Assembly: GCA_001662655.1 (NCBI GenBank) | Contig: KV460212.1 | Length of the DNA: 64,000 nucleotides | Direction: 5' to 3' (one strand) | Source: Pseudogymnoascus verrucosus | Lineage: Eukaryota | Made by a program: the position numbers and the translations under genes | Notes under the pieces: model-generated | Told to the model about the DNA's origin: nothing | The model's input: only the letters and a program-made list of their open reading frames with translations | The model's database searches: none | Shown: piece after piece, positions 55,084 to 62,115 of the stretch | Numbering within the stretch: position 1 is the stretch's first letter | Layout of the letters: the number at the start of each line of letters is the position of its first letter

Positions 55084-56152
55084 TCATCTGATCTTCTTAG
55101 ACCAGGCTCCTACAAATGCTGCCTTATCCTTGACCGTGAGTCCTACCCTCTTGACTCTCCCGAGTCTCGCCAATGCCTCACCCACCTGGTCCAAAACCTT
55201 CTGTTCCTCAGCATTAACCACCCTCTTTCTCATTCCCGAGCTCGTATCAGAAGAATCCTCTTCGGGAAGATCAAGGAAGTTAACGAGGTATTTGTCCTTC
55301 TTCTCGGAAGATACATCTCCTGGCTTGGCTGTGTTGTAAACGGCTTCCGCGATACGGACACGGATACAGTGCGTCTGCTGGGATAGAAGATTCCATAAAA
55401 ATGACCAGTAGCGGCCTGGTACTGGTGTAGTAATGTCTGGGGGCGAATACCGCAGGTTGATGGGGAATATCTTTGTGGTTGACGGAACATTCAGAAGGCT
55501 GGGGCTCAGTGGGAGAATTCCCTTCCCATTCGTCGTGGTACACTCAGGAAACACCACAATCACGCTGTCCGGGTTTTCGGATACGAGCGTCCCAAGGTCG
55601 ACAAGCTTTACACCTGCAGGTGGAGCTTCTTCTGGTCCAGATAGTGCACGAAGCATCGCGCCCAAGAGTGATATAGGACGCACTTGCCTTGTGCTGGGGT
55701 AAGAGACTGTAAAAACCGGGTCGAAGATTGCTGCCAGGTACAGGGCGTCCACCGGAGATGTGAACGAAGAAGCTATTATGCTTGACGGCGCCGGAAGCCT
55801 TTGTTTCTCGCGTGCGAGAGAGCCTTTCTTCACTCCGTCAATTTGCAAGTCGATCCACCAAATTCCCGGTGCTCCGAGTATAACCCATAGCATAGCCTTT
55901 CTGATAAATGCCCCAAGCGGAAGCCATTGTAAAAAGAAAAAGTAGGCCACGGTGATCGCAAGAAACAGTGGAAGCTTCACGACGAAGAGAAATATATTGA
56001 CAGGAAGATAAAGGGTGGAAGTTGGCGAGGTGACGGGAAAGAAAGGCGCGATGCCAGATCCTACGAAATCAGTTTAGCTATGACCTATCACTGATGCAAC
56101 AGATGTGGTGTTAATATTCACCTCGATCCCGAAACTGAGAATACTTCTCCAT
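55084..56152 (-). CDS. LOA1: Lysophosphatidic acid acyltransferase Loa1/Vps66-like
   Basis: MEKYSQFRDR|GSGIAPFFP, TM segments, SSFTSPVD, VVFPECTTTNG acyltransferase motif; C-terminal KKIR fits a KKxx ER-retrieval signal. Confidence 0.85.
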
Positions 56153-56623
56153 CTCACCGTAACGTAATCGTCGAGGTGAGAAAGCGAATGTAAATAAACG
56201 GGAGGGCAGACGTGGGTGCGACTGCTACTCCGTCACAGTAAGGAGATAACTTATCTCGTCGCAGCTAGCGACAGGTCGCCTTCTCTATACGACAAAAAGC
56301 TCGTTCACTCCAGACTTTCCCATCAAGGTGTGGATTTGATATTCCTGATTTTGTGTAGAGTCGCTGGCTTGTGATCGCGTTGAATGTCGCATACCTGTGG
56401 TCGCATGCATTGATGCCTAAGATTTGAGGTTGTACTGTGCAAGGCTACTGTGGAGTTTGTTTACTCTCAATCCATATTTGGACCCGAGACAACTTGTATC
56501 AAGACCAAAGACCAACGACAATCACAACGACAATCACAACTTCGCCAACCAAACTCAATCCGCTCGAAATACTCTGGGGCATGGTTGCTCAAAGTCAATA
56601 GACATTCCTTATTGTTGTGCGCC

Positions 56624-59600
56624 ATGGACGAAGTAGAAAGCACCGTAAGTTCCACAGCAACCAACCTTTGCGACCGGTTCTCGGGTACTCGTACATCGAA
56701 ACCATAACTAAGTCATTTCACAATCAGATTATGAAGAAATCCCAGATTCGCCCACCAAGCCGCATACCATCACCTGGCAAGGGCTTGTCGGAAATAACTG
56801 AGTCGCAAAACAATTCTCGCCTTAGGCCTCCCGGAACAGTGCCGCAAAGCTTGAAATACACATACTGTATGGTCTTGATTCCGATTAAAACATGCCCAGC
56901 TAACACAGTCACCAACAGCAACAGCCTCCTTACAGATGGTCGGCAATGATGAGCCAAAACGAAAGACACTTGTGGAGCGCGCTGGAGAGCCTGCGAAACC
57001 AAATACAAGCTTTGCGCCAGGACGCTCAGTAGTCAAAGGGACCTCTCTCACCAGTGCACGCAGCACGTCTATGGCCTCATCAACATCATCCCGGCCACAG
57101 TCTTCCTCCTCAAGAAATACCTCAGCCAGCAGCTTTGCAAGTAGCGTCGGGCCAGGAGTTCGTCCTCCGTCGTCATATGGGGCCCGGCCACAGACTTCAA
57201 TGTCCAGGGCCAGGTCGAATACAGCCTCATCTAAGCGCCCCGCAACAGCAATGGACGACCACCTTGATCCTGGAGGCGGTCCAGCAACCGGAAAACGACA
57301 GGGTAGGACTCACTATTCACATATGTCCTCACATCCTTCCCACTCTGGACATCATCAGTTACAGTACCACAAGACGCGGCGCTCCCCTCCCCAATTTGAG
57401 CCCCAAGGTCCATCGTCAAGAGAAGTCTCTATCAGCACTGCTCTAAGTAGACTACGAATCGATGACCACGAGGCAGAAAGTTTGCTGCCAGATGCCACCA
57501 ACCCATTCAATTATTTTCCAGGGTTGTCAATGGGTCCACCTGGTACTGTACCGCGGGAGTTACGGAACGACTGCAATAATAATTCTCTGGTCTTGTTTGG
57601 AGCTTCCGAGAAGAGCTCCAGTCTCCCCAAAACTCCTTCTCAGATTCCAATTCCATCCAAAGCAGAAGTGTCAAGTGCTACTCCAGCTACCCCATCAAGG
57701 GCTCCAATACCTTCCCCCGTGAAAACTCCCTTTTTATCCAAAGATTCTAACATAACCGGCTTTACAGGATGGGATGTTCATGGTCGCATTGCAGACATGG
57801 AAGCGATGTACTTCGAATTGAAAGACACTATGGCAGATACCAATGTGGAGCGAAAAAGTCTCGAGGAGACCGTTAGGCACTACAAGATCAAACGTAAGTG
57901 GCAGCTTGTGAATCAAGAGAGTGTTTAACGCTGACTTTTGCCATAGTACTACAGCTGGAGTCGAAGAATTCTGCACTTGAAGCCAAGAAAACGGCGTTGG
58001 AATCCCAAAACATGACTTACGACTCGAAAATAGCTTCTCAGCAGGCGGAACTGGATGCTGCAAGGCAGCGCGCTAATACTATGATGACAGCTGCAGATGA
58101 TGACCGACGATCTCATCGCATCGAACTGGATGATGCCATTCACAACCATCGTCGGGAGTTGGATCAACTACGCCGAGATATGACAGAAGAGATTGACCGC
58201 CTGAAGAAGACTCACCAGAGAAATACTGATGACGAATTTGAAAGATTGGATAAAGCCCATCGAGACGAAATCCGAGAACTAGAGCGCCGAAATGCTTCGC
58301 ACCTTGAAGAAGAAGAACGTCGCCGTGTACAAGACCTCTATGAAGTAAAGAAGCAAATAACTCTTGAACAACAAAATCTCGATCTGGCAGTTGGTAATAA
58401 AGACCGCGAAATCCAAAGTATGCGGGAACAAATTGAGCAGATGAAGGCGGAGCTTGATCAAGAACAAACCTCCAAGGCAAACCTGCAGAAGTCACTGAAT
58501 GACTCGTCTTCGTCTGTTGTGAACCTCGAGGGAACTGTGCGTTCATTACGTGACAGGATCCAGTTTCTTGAATCTGGAAGCCAAGCACAATCTGACCGAT
58601 TTGAGCTCATGGAAAAGCAGTTGCAGGACGCATTAGAGCAGGCTCAAGAATCGAAATCTAAGCTCACCAAAGAAGAGACTCTCCGCCGCATTCTTTTCAA
58701 CCAAGTCCAAGAGCTTAAAGGTAACATTCGAGTCATGTGCCGAGTACGACCGACAAATCCATCGGAGGAGGTAGCGAAGATTCTGTATCCGGATATTGAC
58801 AAGGAGTCCAAAGAATTGGAACTCCAAGGGCCAGAAGAGAAGAGCAGCCTTGGGACAATAACTCGGAAGACCAACGCATTCACGTTTGATCGCACCTTTG
58901 GACCATCTACTACAAATGAGGAGGTTTTTAGTGAAATATCACAGCTTGTGCAGAGCGCATTGGATGGTTACAATGTTTGCATCTTCTGTTATGGCCAAAC
59001 AGGAGCAGGAAAGACGCACACAATGTCTTCATCGGACGGCATGATTCCACGAGCCACACACATGATATACGAAAAAGCCACTGAGTTACAAGACAAGGGG
59101 TGGACGTATTCAATGGAAGGTTCATTTGTGGAAGTCTACAACGAAGAAATCCATGATCTTCTGGGCAACCCCAGGGAATTCGACAAAGTCAAGCACGAAA
59201 TTCGCCACGACGAAAAGAAGAAACAGACGGCTGTCACCAACCTTAAATCCGTTGAGCTCGACTCACCAGATGCTGTGGAATCTATCCTAAGGCGAGCTGA
59301 CGCCAACCGGAGCGTGGCGGCTACGAAATCTAACGAGCGTTCTTCTCGGTCGCATTCTGTCTTCATTTTGAAGCTTATTGGTCGCAACAGCACCACTGGC
59401 GAGACTTCGGAAGGGACATTAAATCTTGTCGACCTGGCTGGATCAGAGAGACTTAAGCAGTCGGGTGCGGAGGGTGATCGAATGAAGGAGACACAGAACA
59501 TTAACAAAAGTTTAAGCTGTCTGGGAGATGTAATCGGCGCTTTGGGCCAGGGCAAGGAAGGAGGTCATATCCCTTATCGGAACTCGAAGGTAAGTTATTC

Positions 59601-59820
59601 CATGGCATTTCTTGTTCCAGAACTAACGTGTACACAGTTGACCTACCTTCTCCAATACTCCCTCGGAGGCAACTCCAAGACGCTCATGTTTGTCATGATC
59701 AGCCCTCTTGAGGCTCATATAAAAGAGACGTTGACGAGCTTGAAGTTTGCCACGAAGGTGCACAACACTCACATCGGGACAGCCAAAAAGACTACCAGAG
59801 TGAAGGAGAGGGATGCATGA
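56624..59820 (+). CDS. KAR3: Kinesin-14 minus-end motor (Kar3/KlpA)
   Basis: C-terminal motor domain: ELKGNIRVMCRVRP, YGQTGAGKTHTM, NERSSRSH, LVDLAGSER, HIPYRNSK|LTYLLQ; coiled-coil stalk; KRKTLVERAGE tail motif; several introns. Confidence 0.95.
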
Positions 59821-60324
59821 TATGCCACTGCGTAATGTTAGAAGCAACCTGTAGATTGGCTGGTAGCCACTGCTACCTGCTATTGTAAGCATTGGGCATG
59901 ATGAGATTACGGACTATTTGGGGCTGGAGTTGAGGCGTATCGGTATTGGACTTATTGTGGCGATTTATGTATCACACACCTATAGTGCTCCTGGTCTACT
60001 ATAGGTGATTTCTGAATGGAAAAGAAGTATTACAGTTAGTTGTATCTGGTACAAGCATACCCCGTAATGATTTCAAATCCACTCATTACAAGTCATATAA
60101 TATTAAACTGAGCATAACAAAGTGTATTAATTTTCCACGTTCCAATACCCATAAACTATAAGATCAACATGTCCGCCTCAACACGTTTCCCTATCAACGG
60201 TATGCCTCAAGATTAAAGGGGCCGCTGACATAAGCGATGTTGATTGTATCCCCTGCAACTTCGTTCACCCTCATAATCCATCACGTGCTATAGAACCTCC
60301 CAGGTCACTTAATCTGATATAAGC

Positions 60325-62115
60325 ATGCCAGTCAAGGCCCCCTCTGTGCTCTTGACCGAGTGTCTTCAGGACAGAAACTTGACTGTCAAGTCGTCTGATC
60401 AGCTGAGGGATGTAGACTCAGGAGACGACAAGTCGTTCAAGACTTGGATTATGGAGACCATAGATTCCAAGACCATGCTCACCAAAGAGGAGTTAAACCT
60501 GTATGCCTACCAATACCAAGAGAGAACTAGATGCTAATTACTGTGCAGATATAACTCGCTTGAAGAAATAGGCGAAGCCAGGTTGCTTGGGTCCTTGGTG
60601 GATTTAGGACAAGTGCGAGCGTTTGAAGACCTTGATATCCAAACCGCGACAAGGCAACTACAGAGTTCCACAGCTGCCATCGATAAGCAAAATGAAATTC
60701 TCAAAATTCAGCAAGCTGCTTTATCAACGCTGGCCGCGACAGAATTACAGCAACGGCAGCGCAGGTCTATGGCAAATGCCGTACAGCACAGGTTGTGGAA
60801 GGAGGCGCTAGACCAGGTTAATGCCGAAGTAAGTTGACCGTAAAGACCCAAGATATATCCCATTCTCATACGGATTAGGTTGAAGAAGCAGCCAGTGCGC
60901 TGTCAGAACATGTCAGCAGCAATAAGACACAATGTGCCGCGATGGACGCGGCGTTAATCCAGCAGTCAACTAACCTGCTACGGTCCGACGACAAGATCAT
61001 TTCTAGCCTTCAGAAACTATCAAAGACATTGCAGTATGGGATGTCCCCAGAAAATGATACGTTTGAACGGATACGGAAGCTCTGTACCAGGTAATTCCCA
61101 AACATCGTTAACCACTTGCTATTGCTCATGTGTATATAGTCTCATAAAGTACACGGTGGAGGGTGTCCGGCTGCGCCTTGACCGAGCCTACATCGAGGCC
61201 TTGGGCGTGCATCAAGTGGAGAGGAAAGGCACTCCTCAAAATGAACAGGAGGTCATGGAACTTCAAGCGGAGCTAGACTCCCTGTACTCCGAGATTCTTC
61301 CTGTCGCACAGATGTCTGCCGAGCAGCGATACCTCGACTGTGCCGTTCGAGCTATTGCCTCCCAGGACAAGCAAGGACTTGAGAAGTCGAAAACGATTAT
61401 AGAATATGTCCGTTTAAGCACCGTTATAAATATTAAGTGCTATGCTAACCTTATTTAGATTTCGGAATCCACCACCTTTCTCATCGACCGCGCTGAGGTC
61501 TTCAAGCGTCACGTGGAGGCGTACCAGAGTCACATTGCAACATTAAACGCTGTTTTGAAACTCCTCAGCTCAGAGATAAATTCCATTGACCTCTCTCGGC
61601 CCAAAAAACCCGAGCAGCCCCGAAGTCCGCTCCAATCCAGGAGCCACAAGCCTGCATCGCCCAGTCTATCCCGATCTGCCCACCGTCGCCGCTCATCCGC
61701 CTCCTCCTTCGACGAAAGCACCCCTCCAGACCAACAAATTCTCCGAATAATGGGGATTCCGCCACTCGAGGAGTTATGTCGTGATCGTGCCCCAGAAGCT
61801 GTCCTCCATGAAACCCTCAGCGACAAAATCCAGAAGCTTAAGGCGCACGAACAGGGCTTGCAGGCGTCATCTGAATCCGCTATTGGAGATCATCTACAGG
61901 ATGCATTTGCAACGCTGCAATTGCTCAGTGATACGATGTTAAGTGAGACCAAGTATCAGGAAATCCGGCTCCTCGATGAAGAAGTCCAGGAAGCCATTTC
62001 AGGACTGGACCAGGAATTGGCTGACCTGTCGAGTCACCTGCAGAGTCTCGATTTTGAGAGACTAAAGGAGCGTAATTCTCACAAGGAGGCGTTTATTGAA
62101 AGATGGGCCCATTAG
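60325..62115 (+). CDS. Coiled-coil protein, probable augmin subunit HAUS3/Dgt3/Aug3 homologue
   Basis: Five exons join in frame (introns near 60501-60548, 60829-60878, 61091-61139, 61408-61458); N-terminal SFKTWIMETIDSKTMLTKEELNLYNSLEEIG resembles the HAUS3 N-terminus. The gene is solid; the product call is tentative. Confidence 0.55.

Follow-up and report, generated by a model that had tools for sequence, protein, structure and literature searches.

Whether a single stretch of a fungal gene can serve both as intron and as exon is the question raised by a kinesin-14 gene of the KlpA/Kar3 type in Pseudogymnoascus verrucosus. The gene lies in a window of 64,000 nucleotides (nt) of contig KV460212.1 (GenBank assembly GCA_001662655.1); the window is the whole stretch of DNA that was analysed, and all positions are counted from its first letter. 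Within the region that encodes the N-terminal tail of the motor, positions 57303-57767 carry a full set of intron signals and at the same time form an open continuation of the reading frame on either side. We favour, with a probability of about 0.7, the reading that this interval is a deeply conserved alternative intron of the exitron type. The one gene would then probably make a short and a long motor, which differ by a flexible segment with a microtubule-tip-binding motif.

To our knowledge, few cases are documented in fungi of alternative splicing that is functional and gives two proteins, and fungal intron retention is usually treated as noise. One interval with selection on both of its readings, the peptide on the one hand and the splice signals at synonymous sites on the other, makes a clean case of overlapping codes. 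The exitron itself is a known kind of element, and what is notable here is that the two overlapping codes are conserved deeply.

An open interval bounded by intron signals

The interval is spanned in full by an open reading frame (ORF) that runs from stop to stop over 56879..57928, with an ATG at 56936, and both flanks are coding in the same frame. The elements to which the argument refers are as follows.

57303..57767, plus strand: candidate exitron, a 465-nt phase-1 GT..AG interval encoding a 155-residue insert predicted to be disordered (sequence, RNA contigs and comparison)
57303..57308, plus strand: donor GTAGGA after the exon end AGG, with its GT at 57303-57304 (sequence; homologous GT in relatives)
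57419..57466, plus strand: conserved motif REVSISTALSRLRIDD (REVSxSTAxSxL), the sole predicted helix of the insert (aligns in Acephala and Monilinia)
57638..57649, plus strand: SxIP motif (SQIP) within PKTPSQIPIPSK (alignments A1 and A2)
57689..57724, plus strand: two proline-directed kinase consensus sites, TPSR at 57689-57700 and SPVK at 57713-57724 (alignment A1)
57747..57751, plus strand: branch-site consensus CTAAC (TCTAAC), within the codons GAT TCT AAC (D S N) (sequence and lineages)
57761..57767, plus strand: acceptor TTTACAG, the G of its AG being the first base of a Gly codon (sequence; contig 26 of run X3 begins at 57767)

The interval comprises 155 codons in phase 1 with no in-frame stop, while the other two frames contain three and seven stops. 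An initial annotation, made from the letters of the DNA, had already placed the donor, branch site and acceptor here and had described the interval as 465 nt or 155 codons, in frame and free of stops; each of these statements agrees with the sequence. It had also put the probability of such an open frame at 6e-4. Our own figures are approximately 1.1e-3, from the 229 stop-free cases among 200,000 mononucleotide shuffles of the 154 full codons, and 1.4e-3 when estimated from base composition.

Both readings of the interval lead to an uninterrupted protein. The spliced coding sequence (CDS) amounts to 2,496 nt (831 residues) and the insert-retaining CDS to 2,961 nt (986 residues), with internal stops in neither. 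Splicing joins the tail to the stalk as ...GKRQG/WDVHGRIADMEAMY (WDVHGR...), where the slash marks the join, just as the initial annotation had read it. As the interval is a multiple of three and is stop-free, an unspliced mRNA would encode the 986-residue motor; its additional 155 residues include PKTPSQIP, ATPATPSR and PSPVKTP. The interval has a GC content of 0.486, close to that of the CDS (0.490) and higher than that of the gene's four short introns (0.396-0.458).

Other explanations for an element at this place find little to build upon. There is no Rfam match within 56000-60500 and no repeat of at least 12 nt within 57200-57900, and a non-coding RNA or a mobile element is therefore unsupported for the interval. 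No Pfam family matches the insert at E<=0.1. Two minus-strand ORFs that cross the interval (65 and 112 residues) were considered and set aside, being without any support.

Conservation and selection on the coding reading

If the interval is ever translated, relatives should share its peptide. The insert alone (154 full codons, P0016) matches the homologous place in Acephala (E=1e-21), Monilinia (6e-20) and Thermothelomyces (1e-6). A word-based search returned 11 proteins with the insert, nine of which are ORF-type calls, and an exhaustive search of cluster representatives with an insert profile gave 64 at E<=1e-3, 46 at E<=1e-10 and 24 at E<=1e-30. Loci with DNA were obtained from a scan of metagenome contigs, and all 13 of these, from around nine distinct lineages, are open through the interval. 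For the comparison of the interval itself we used the source together with the 12 loci that reach both ends, a set of 10 distinct lineages. Throughout this set the interval runs from GT to AG, measures 462-501 nt, is always a multiple of three, and is free of in-frame stops, while each of the other frames contains 3-12. Insertions and deletions within the interval in relatives are of 3, 6 and 6 nt; outside coding sequence, one of the eight that are listed is a multiple of three. At least 10 Pseudogymnoascus sequences likewise keep the frame open (P0002, P0017-P0019, P0123, P0125-P0127, P0130 and P0131).

The ratio of non-synonymous to synonymous divergence (dN/dS) is 0.24-0.43 for the insert in eight divergent pairs, out of nine pairs in all, and 0.05-0.17 for the upstream tail; synonymous divergence (dS) exceeds 1 in several of the pairs, which makes the ratios approximate and is to be held against too firm a reading of them. 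The insert shows less synonymous divergence than the tail exon at 56919-57302 in 8 of the 8 divergent pairs, and there may be splicing-regulatory or other RNA-level constraint inside the insert.

At the level of sequence, the features by which exitrons are recognised were all found here, namely an exonic position, canonical signals, a length divisible by three, the absence of stops, an exon-like GC content and purifying selection. The initial annotation had expected orthologous loci to retain the splice signals, the length in threes and the freedom from stops, and to have dN/dS below 1 in the insert; this expectation was borne out in 10 of 10 lineages for the former and in eight of the nine pairs for the latter. 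On this comparative evidence, in Leotiomycetes, in Sordariomycetes and in a lichen-forming lineage, purifying selection acts on the encoded peptide as well as on the splice signals.

Splice signals held within codons

The signals for splicing lie inside codons, where their maintenance can be separated from that of the protein. All 12 loci that reach the donor have a phase-1 GT at the homologous place, seven as GTATG, four (near-identical loci) as GTAGG and one as GTACG. The donor codon is mostly that for Met (GT ATG), giving Met as the first residue of the insert. Among the 10 lineages the branch site reads TCTAAC in eight, TCTAAT in one and TCTGAC in one, and its Ser codon is TCT in every lineage, compared with a background frequency of 0.231. 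The last codon of the insert is likewise NNA followed by a G in all 10 lineages, with an encoded residue that varies between T, A, V, S and L. Nominal probabilities of approximately 2e-6 each overstate independence, as the lineages are related; on the other hand, synonymous sites elsewhere are near saturation. Judged from this pattern of codon use, the splice signals are themselves under selection.

Evidence that the interval is spliced

Information on splicing comes from run X3, which derives from a relative that is approximately 95% identical. None of the 24 runs listed is on record as RNA, and X3 is taken as RNA-derived since its contigs skip all four short introns at GT..AG. Its evidence consists of three contigs from one run of a relative rather than of the source strain, and one run is a weak hint. 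Contig 24 (depth 273.5) covers 56919-57303 and ends at 57303, contig 26 (depth 381.4) begins at 57767, and contig 25 (depth 13.9) reads through the interval from 57274 to 57796 and overlaps each of its neighbours by 30 nt, from which a de Bruijn graph with k=31 is deduced. For a junction between 57302 and 57768, breaks are expected at exactly 57303 and 57767, because base 57303 is the same as base 57768 (G) and base 57767 the same as base 57302 (G). Had the sequence between the two edge copies of the direct repeat ACAGG been deleted, the ends would lie at 57302 and at or before 57764, with which those in X3 disagree. The high-depth path that would connect the two outer contigs is probably unlisted because it is only around 60 nt long.

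By contig depth, approximately 4-5% of the X3 RNA is unspliced across the interval and approximately 95% is spliced; in this run, the only informative one, spliced RNA strongly predominates. The initial annotation had looked to RNA for reads across 57302/57768 as well as for continuous coverage. The X3 contigs fit both, with the qualification that the junction is deduced from contig ends and that the RNA is that of a relative.

Further sequences add to the picture of the short form. P0030, from another species, is an uninterrupted, mRNA-like ORF of 843 residues whose Logan contig does not exceed 3,022 nt and whose junction reads GKGKA/FDID, and the short-form model of Botrytis cinerea (P0035, 834 residues) is also recorded from Logan. 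A short annotated model, P0004, which is 97% identical to the source tail, reads ...KRQG/WDVHGRIADMEAMY. Run X1 (99% alike, low depth) leaves 57368-57851 uncovered and 57247-57367 almost so; other exon bins are uncovered too, and the run is hence uninformative. The DNA-like runs X19 and X20 are continuous through the interval. Over 56400-60000, X19 contains two versions of the locus, approximately 99% and approximately 86-90% alike, the second with deletions of 3 nt and 6 nt in the insert; these appear to be two strains or species in one data set.

Peptide motifs of the insert and the tail

The insert is rich in Ser (17%) and Pro (14%), and is predicted to be disordered, with a mean predicted local distance difference test score of 56 and no fold. 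In the helical motif REVSISTALSRLRIDD, the residues R39, S42, S48 and L50 are invariant in alignment A2, and the helix itself corresponds to insert residues 43-48. Toward the end of the insert lies the motif FL(S/T)KDSN, whose codons double as the branch site.

Between these two is the SxIP element. SxIP motifs that bind EB1 typically sit within a disordered, basic stretch that is rich in Ser and Pro. In the core PxTPSxIP the residues P, T, P, S, I and P are invariant in both A1 and A2, and S, I and P are found in 10 of 10 sequences; within PKTPSQIPIPSK there is a Lys four residues before and another six residues after the Ser of the motif. Long models of Leotiomycetes and of Candelaria have S[QHKS]IP. 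At the place of PKTPSxIP, long models of Sordariomycetes share another motif, MLDKFEDTL, IDQFEKVF, IFNKFEDTL or MNELEDAIL (P0051, P0052, P0053 and P0060). The kinase sites follow the pattern [ST]Px[KR], which is a consensus of the cyclin-dependent kinase type. In A1 the residues T249, P250, T252, P253, S260 and K263 are invariant and P261 is nearly so; the invariant residues also include TPxTP, S..K and R..S.....S.L.

The initial annotation had pointed to the SQIP at 57638-57649, to ATPATPSR and PSPVKTP in the insert, and to a second motif, SRIP, in exon 2. All of these are present, and the residues of the SxIP and SP/TP sites are conserved; the EB1 binding, the phosphorylation and the regulated switching that it had attached to them are predicted roles. 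The SRIP of exon 2 sits in the conserved stretch (L/I)RPPSRIPSPGKG, and a match to [ST]x[IL]P is found N-terminal of KRKTL in 36 of 41 orthologue models, the pattern being short and prone to chance.

Long and short models in public annotation

Public annotation is divided over how to treat the interval. The distance from KRKTL to the start of the stalk is bimodal, at 115-132 or 252-307 residues. By reading of public records there are around 19 long named models, which keep the whole insert, and around 18 short ones, which splice it out at the same place; many of the long models may be ab initio read-throughs, a consideration that counts against our reading, and the counts therefore describe annotation, not biology. 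Long models come from Pseudogymnoascus, Acephala, Monilinia, Venustampulla, Bisporella, Xylogone, Scytalidium, Lachnellula, Rutstroemia, Cudoniella, Botrytis sinoallii, Podosphaera, Candelaria, Thermothelomyces heterothallicus CBS 203.75, Chaetomidium, Zalerion, Rhypophila, Colletotrichum karsti and one isoform of Diaporthe vaccinii. The short ones come from Pseudogymnoascus (three), Thermothelomyces (three), Botrytis cinerea, Clarireedia, Mollisia, Cytospora (two), Podospora, Diaporthe eres, Colletotrichum fructicola, Cordyceps, Lasallia, Taxawa and Viridothelium. In two partial models, P0003 and P0050, the acceptor is unchanged but the donor is an internal one. The long and the short form are both found within Pseudogymnoascus, within T. 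heterothallicus and under one locus tag of D. vaccinii. The interval is annotated as exon in P0002 and in six further Pseudogymnoascus models.

A proposed switch between two motors

In the mechanism that we propose, the spliceosome would use AGG/GTAGGA, TCTAAC and TTTACAG, and removal of the 465 nt would give an 831-residue motor whose microtubule-binding tail runs directly into the coiled-coil stalk. The retained mRNA would give a 986-residue motor, in which a predicted disordered insert of 155 residues lies between tail and stalk. A fraction of the mature mRNA would keep the insert, and we infer that the long isoform is translated from it. The insert would contribute the helical REVSxSTAxSxL, the SxIP in its basic Ser/Pro context, the two [ST]Px[KR] sites and FL(S/T)KDSN. 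Together with the constitutive SRIP, the SxIP of the insert would provide two candidate EB1-binding motifs in the tail, as in the fission-yeast motor Klp2, and the pair could lead to stronger, phospho-regulated loading on growing microtubule ends. As a second and more speculative effect, the longer linker between tail and stalk might alter the coupling that sets the directionality of KlpA.

The interval lies at the tail-stalk junction, the place at which the tail of KlpA meets coiled coil 1; in KlpA the tail decides processivity and direction. The insert would add a second EB1-type motif there, and could account for how one kinesin-14 meets the different demands of the spindle and of nuclear movement. 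A wider proposal, which we put forward as tentative and as somewhat doubtful, is that this is an ancient splice-controlled switch of kinesin-14 in filamentous ascomycetes (Leotiomycetes, Sordariomycetes and lichen-forming fungi). One interval of 460-500 nt would combine intron signals frozen in codons with a kinase-regulated, EB1-binding linker. Regulation of its retention, in mitosis or sexual development for instance, would let the cell adjust how the motor loads at plus ends, and perhaps its direction, without a second gene.

Weighing the alternatives

A number of observations weigh against the reading of the interval as a conserved exitron. The joint between 57302 and 57768 is absent from the joint table, and is deduced from the ends and depths of the X3 contigs. 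Contig 25 covers the interval and 30 nt on each side only, and could represent unspliced precursor RNA; a retention of approximately 4-5% falls within the range of splicing noise, and the lack of retained contigs for the four short introns is uninformative, since contigs drop rare variants. Among 76 proteins (P0061-P0136) that were screened past the start of the stalk, no transcript was found that keeps the insert with the other introns removed. One of them, P0069 (JGI, on a contig of 5,116 nt), keeps the insert, is without the next intron (…YKAR/VAELELLRAQ…) and stops after …TATT; it is probably genomic with another intron layout, the alternative being a fragment of a retained transcript. In the near-identical pair L003 and L005, the dN/dS of the insert is approximately 2, from very few changes. 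The SxIP is missing from the long models of Sordariomycetes, and EB1 binding therefore cannot be the universal reason for conservation. The pattern [ST]x[IL]P is moreover short and common in Ser/Pro-rich sequence, and the insert has three matches to it.

The pair L003 and L005 differs in the insert by a proportion of 0.032 at non-synonymous sites (pN) and 0.016 at synonymous sites (pS), with no change in 42 codons of the stalk. The excess could reflect low-coverage errors or relaxed constraint in one copy.

If the low-depth contig is simply precursor RNA, the interval would be an ordinary constitutive intron, with no long protein made today in the genus. Such an account draws on the approximately 95% of X3 depth that is spliced, on the mRNA-like ORFs of other species (P0030 and the B. 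cinerea P0035) that are without the insert, and on the failure to find a mature retained transcript. But an intron that is never translated would not be expected to keep a length in threes and an open frame in 10 of 10 lineages, nor to have a dN/dS of 0.24-0.43; peptide motifs that are invariant across fungal classes, a frame that is open in at least 10 Pseudogymnoascus sequences and a GC content like that of CDS and above that of the short introns all argue in the same direction, and we regard this explanation as very unlikely. The converse, that the interval is plain exon in the source strain and that the break in X3 is specific to the relative or an artefact of reverse transcription or assembly, we hold to be highly improbable. 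Exitron artefacts of the latter kind are known (PMC8240250), there is no RNA cover from the source strain, and X1, the run that is 99% alike, is uncovered at the interval and at exon edges; in addition, the donor GTAGGA is weaker than the GTAAGT or GTATGG of neighbouring introns, and the 5-nt direct repeat ACAGG is found at both edges. Yet the contig ends at 57303 and 57767 fit a GT..AG junction and not an ACAGG deletion, 57200-57900 holds no longer repeats, and P0018 and P0019, which have the same GTAGGA-encoding 'GRT' donor codons, keep the layout. Donor, branch site and acceptor are also kept at synonymous positions in 10 lineages, which is sensible only if they are used.

It may also be that both isoforms are made and that the insert provides flexible spacing or docks some other partner, with a role in tail-motor coupling, directionality or spindle-pole targeting; the SxIP would then be incidental, or particular to some lineages. 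Conservation of the insert is indeed widest in REVSxSTAxSxL and FL(S/T)KDSN rather than in SxIP, and the long models of Sordariomycetes, which are without SxIP, share the KFEDTL-like motif instead. The tail of KlpA is described as a directionality switch in one study (PMC5216134), and earlier work cited in a preprint on TinA reports that the direction is reversed when the stalk receives a flexible peptide (bioRxiv 10.1101/2025.02.11.636922). Against a mere spacer stand the six residues of the SxIP context that are invariant within Leotiomycetes, which is more than a spacer would need, and the conservation of FLSKDSN is explained in part by the embedded branch site. We consider this alternative unlikely, and retain the exitron with an EB1-type motif as the preferred reading.

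Comparison with known systems

The closest parallel in kind is provided by the exitrons of Arabidopsis and human (Marquez et al. 2015, PMC4484396). As there, an intron with canonical signals lies in an annotated coding exon, has a length divisible by three and is stop-free, the encoded region is predicted to be disordered and has candidate modification sites, and splicing gives an internally deleted protein. In contrast to those exitrons, the kinesin-14 interval is fungal and is, in one run, mainly spliced instead of mostly retained (PMC4484396). Its conservation across fungal classes extends to the splice signals as well as the peptide, with the branch site and the acceptor in conserved codons.

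For the proposed function, the relevant systems are other motors of the family. In fission yeast, two SxIP motifs in the tail of Klp2 load the motor on microtubules via Mal3, phosphorylation nearby blocks loading, and basic residues flank the motif (PMC3510020). The long isoform would resemble Klp2 as a kinesin-14 with a disordered N-terminal tail, in which two [ST]xIP motifs are predicted in a basic Ser/Pro context with phosphorylatable sites near. In Klp2, however, both motifs are constitutive and binding of Mal3 has been demonstrated, whereas here one motif is alternatively spliced and is known from sequence; the kinase that acts on Klp2 is Sid2, while the sites in the present insert look proline-directed (PMC3510020). 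In budding yeast, Cik1-Kar3 is recruited by EB1/Bim1 via SxIP and other short motifs in a disordered N-terminal region, but these motifs are on the non-motor partner Cik1 and splicing is not involved (PMC7545359).

The Aspergillus nidulans motor KlpA has a like arrangement of tail, three-part coiled coil, neck and C-terminal motor, and the spliced form of the present gene joins the tail directly to the stalk, as in the domain map of KlpA, where the coiled coil begins at residue 153 (PMC5216134, bioRxiv 10.1101/2025.02.11.636922). In the available text of these two papers, 'isoform' and 'splic' have no occurrences in bioRxiv 10.1101/2025.02.11.636922, and 'isoform' has none in PMC5216134. More broadly, no description of an exitron or isoform of a fungal kinesin-14 was found in the searchable literature, judged partly by title, and no fungal exitron was found among the papers listed for exitron and fungi; of the papers on alternative splicing in Pseudogymnoascus destructans, none is about this gene, judged by title.

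Structure and identity of the gene

The exons of the gene around the interval, with the other parts of its coding region, are given below.

56624..59820, plus strand: coding region of the KlpA/Kar3-type kinesin-14 (exon joins from RNA-derived contigs and sequence reading)
56624..56644, plus strand: exon 1 (MDEVEST), followed by intron 1 at 56645-56727, which is GT..AG and is skipped in X3 contig 24
56728..56866, plus strand: exon 2, which bears the SRIP at 56758-56769 (RNA contigs and sequence)
56919..57302, plus strand: tail exon 5' of the exitron, Ser-rich and basic, with the end ...GKRQ + G (X3 contig 24)
57768..57893, plus strand: start of the stalk (WDVHGRIADMEAMY...), the next intron being 57894-57946 (RNA contigs and sequence)
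57947..59589, plus strand: exon for stalk and motor (X3 contig 26)
59638..59820, plus strand: last exon, with the stop codon at its end (RNA contigs and sequence)

The other four introns of the gene measure 83, 52, 53 and 48 nt. In P0072 (832 residues) and in locus L004 (417-3056), the next short intron, which corresponds to 57894-57946 in the source, is in frame and stop-free, and the ORF continues into stalk and motor; this read-through could be due to chance or to a second small in-frame intron.

The retained form is identical to the public model P0002 (986 residues, Pseudogymnoascus sp.) at 962 of 986 positions (97.6%). Pfam recognises the kinesin motor PF00225 at residues 644-969 of P0002 (E=2e-106) and PF16796 at 619-784 (E=6e-58). 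The arrangement is that of a kinesin-14, with a C-terminal motor, a preceding coiled-coil stalk and an N-terminal non-motor tail, and the names given to orthologues in public records include klpA, Bckar3 and 'kinesin-like nuclear fusion protein'. By homology and layout, the source gene is a KlpA/Kar3-type kinesin-14 of a Pseudogymnoascus-like fungus.

Two public models, P0005 (1,340 residues) and P0129 (1,518 residues), have the kinesin fused to the downstream gene (approximately 60313-62115, plus strand), and the C-terminal part of P0005 matches ORFs from 60313 on; the fusion is probably an annotation error. Inconsistent annotation of this locus (around 19 long, around 18 short and two partial models, together with the downstream-gene fusions) affects orthologue sets and comparisons that are based on length.

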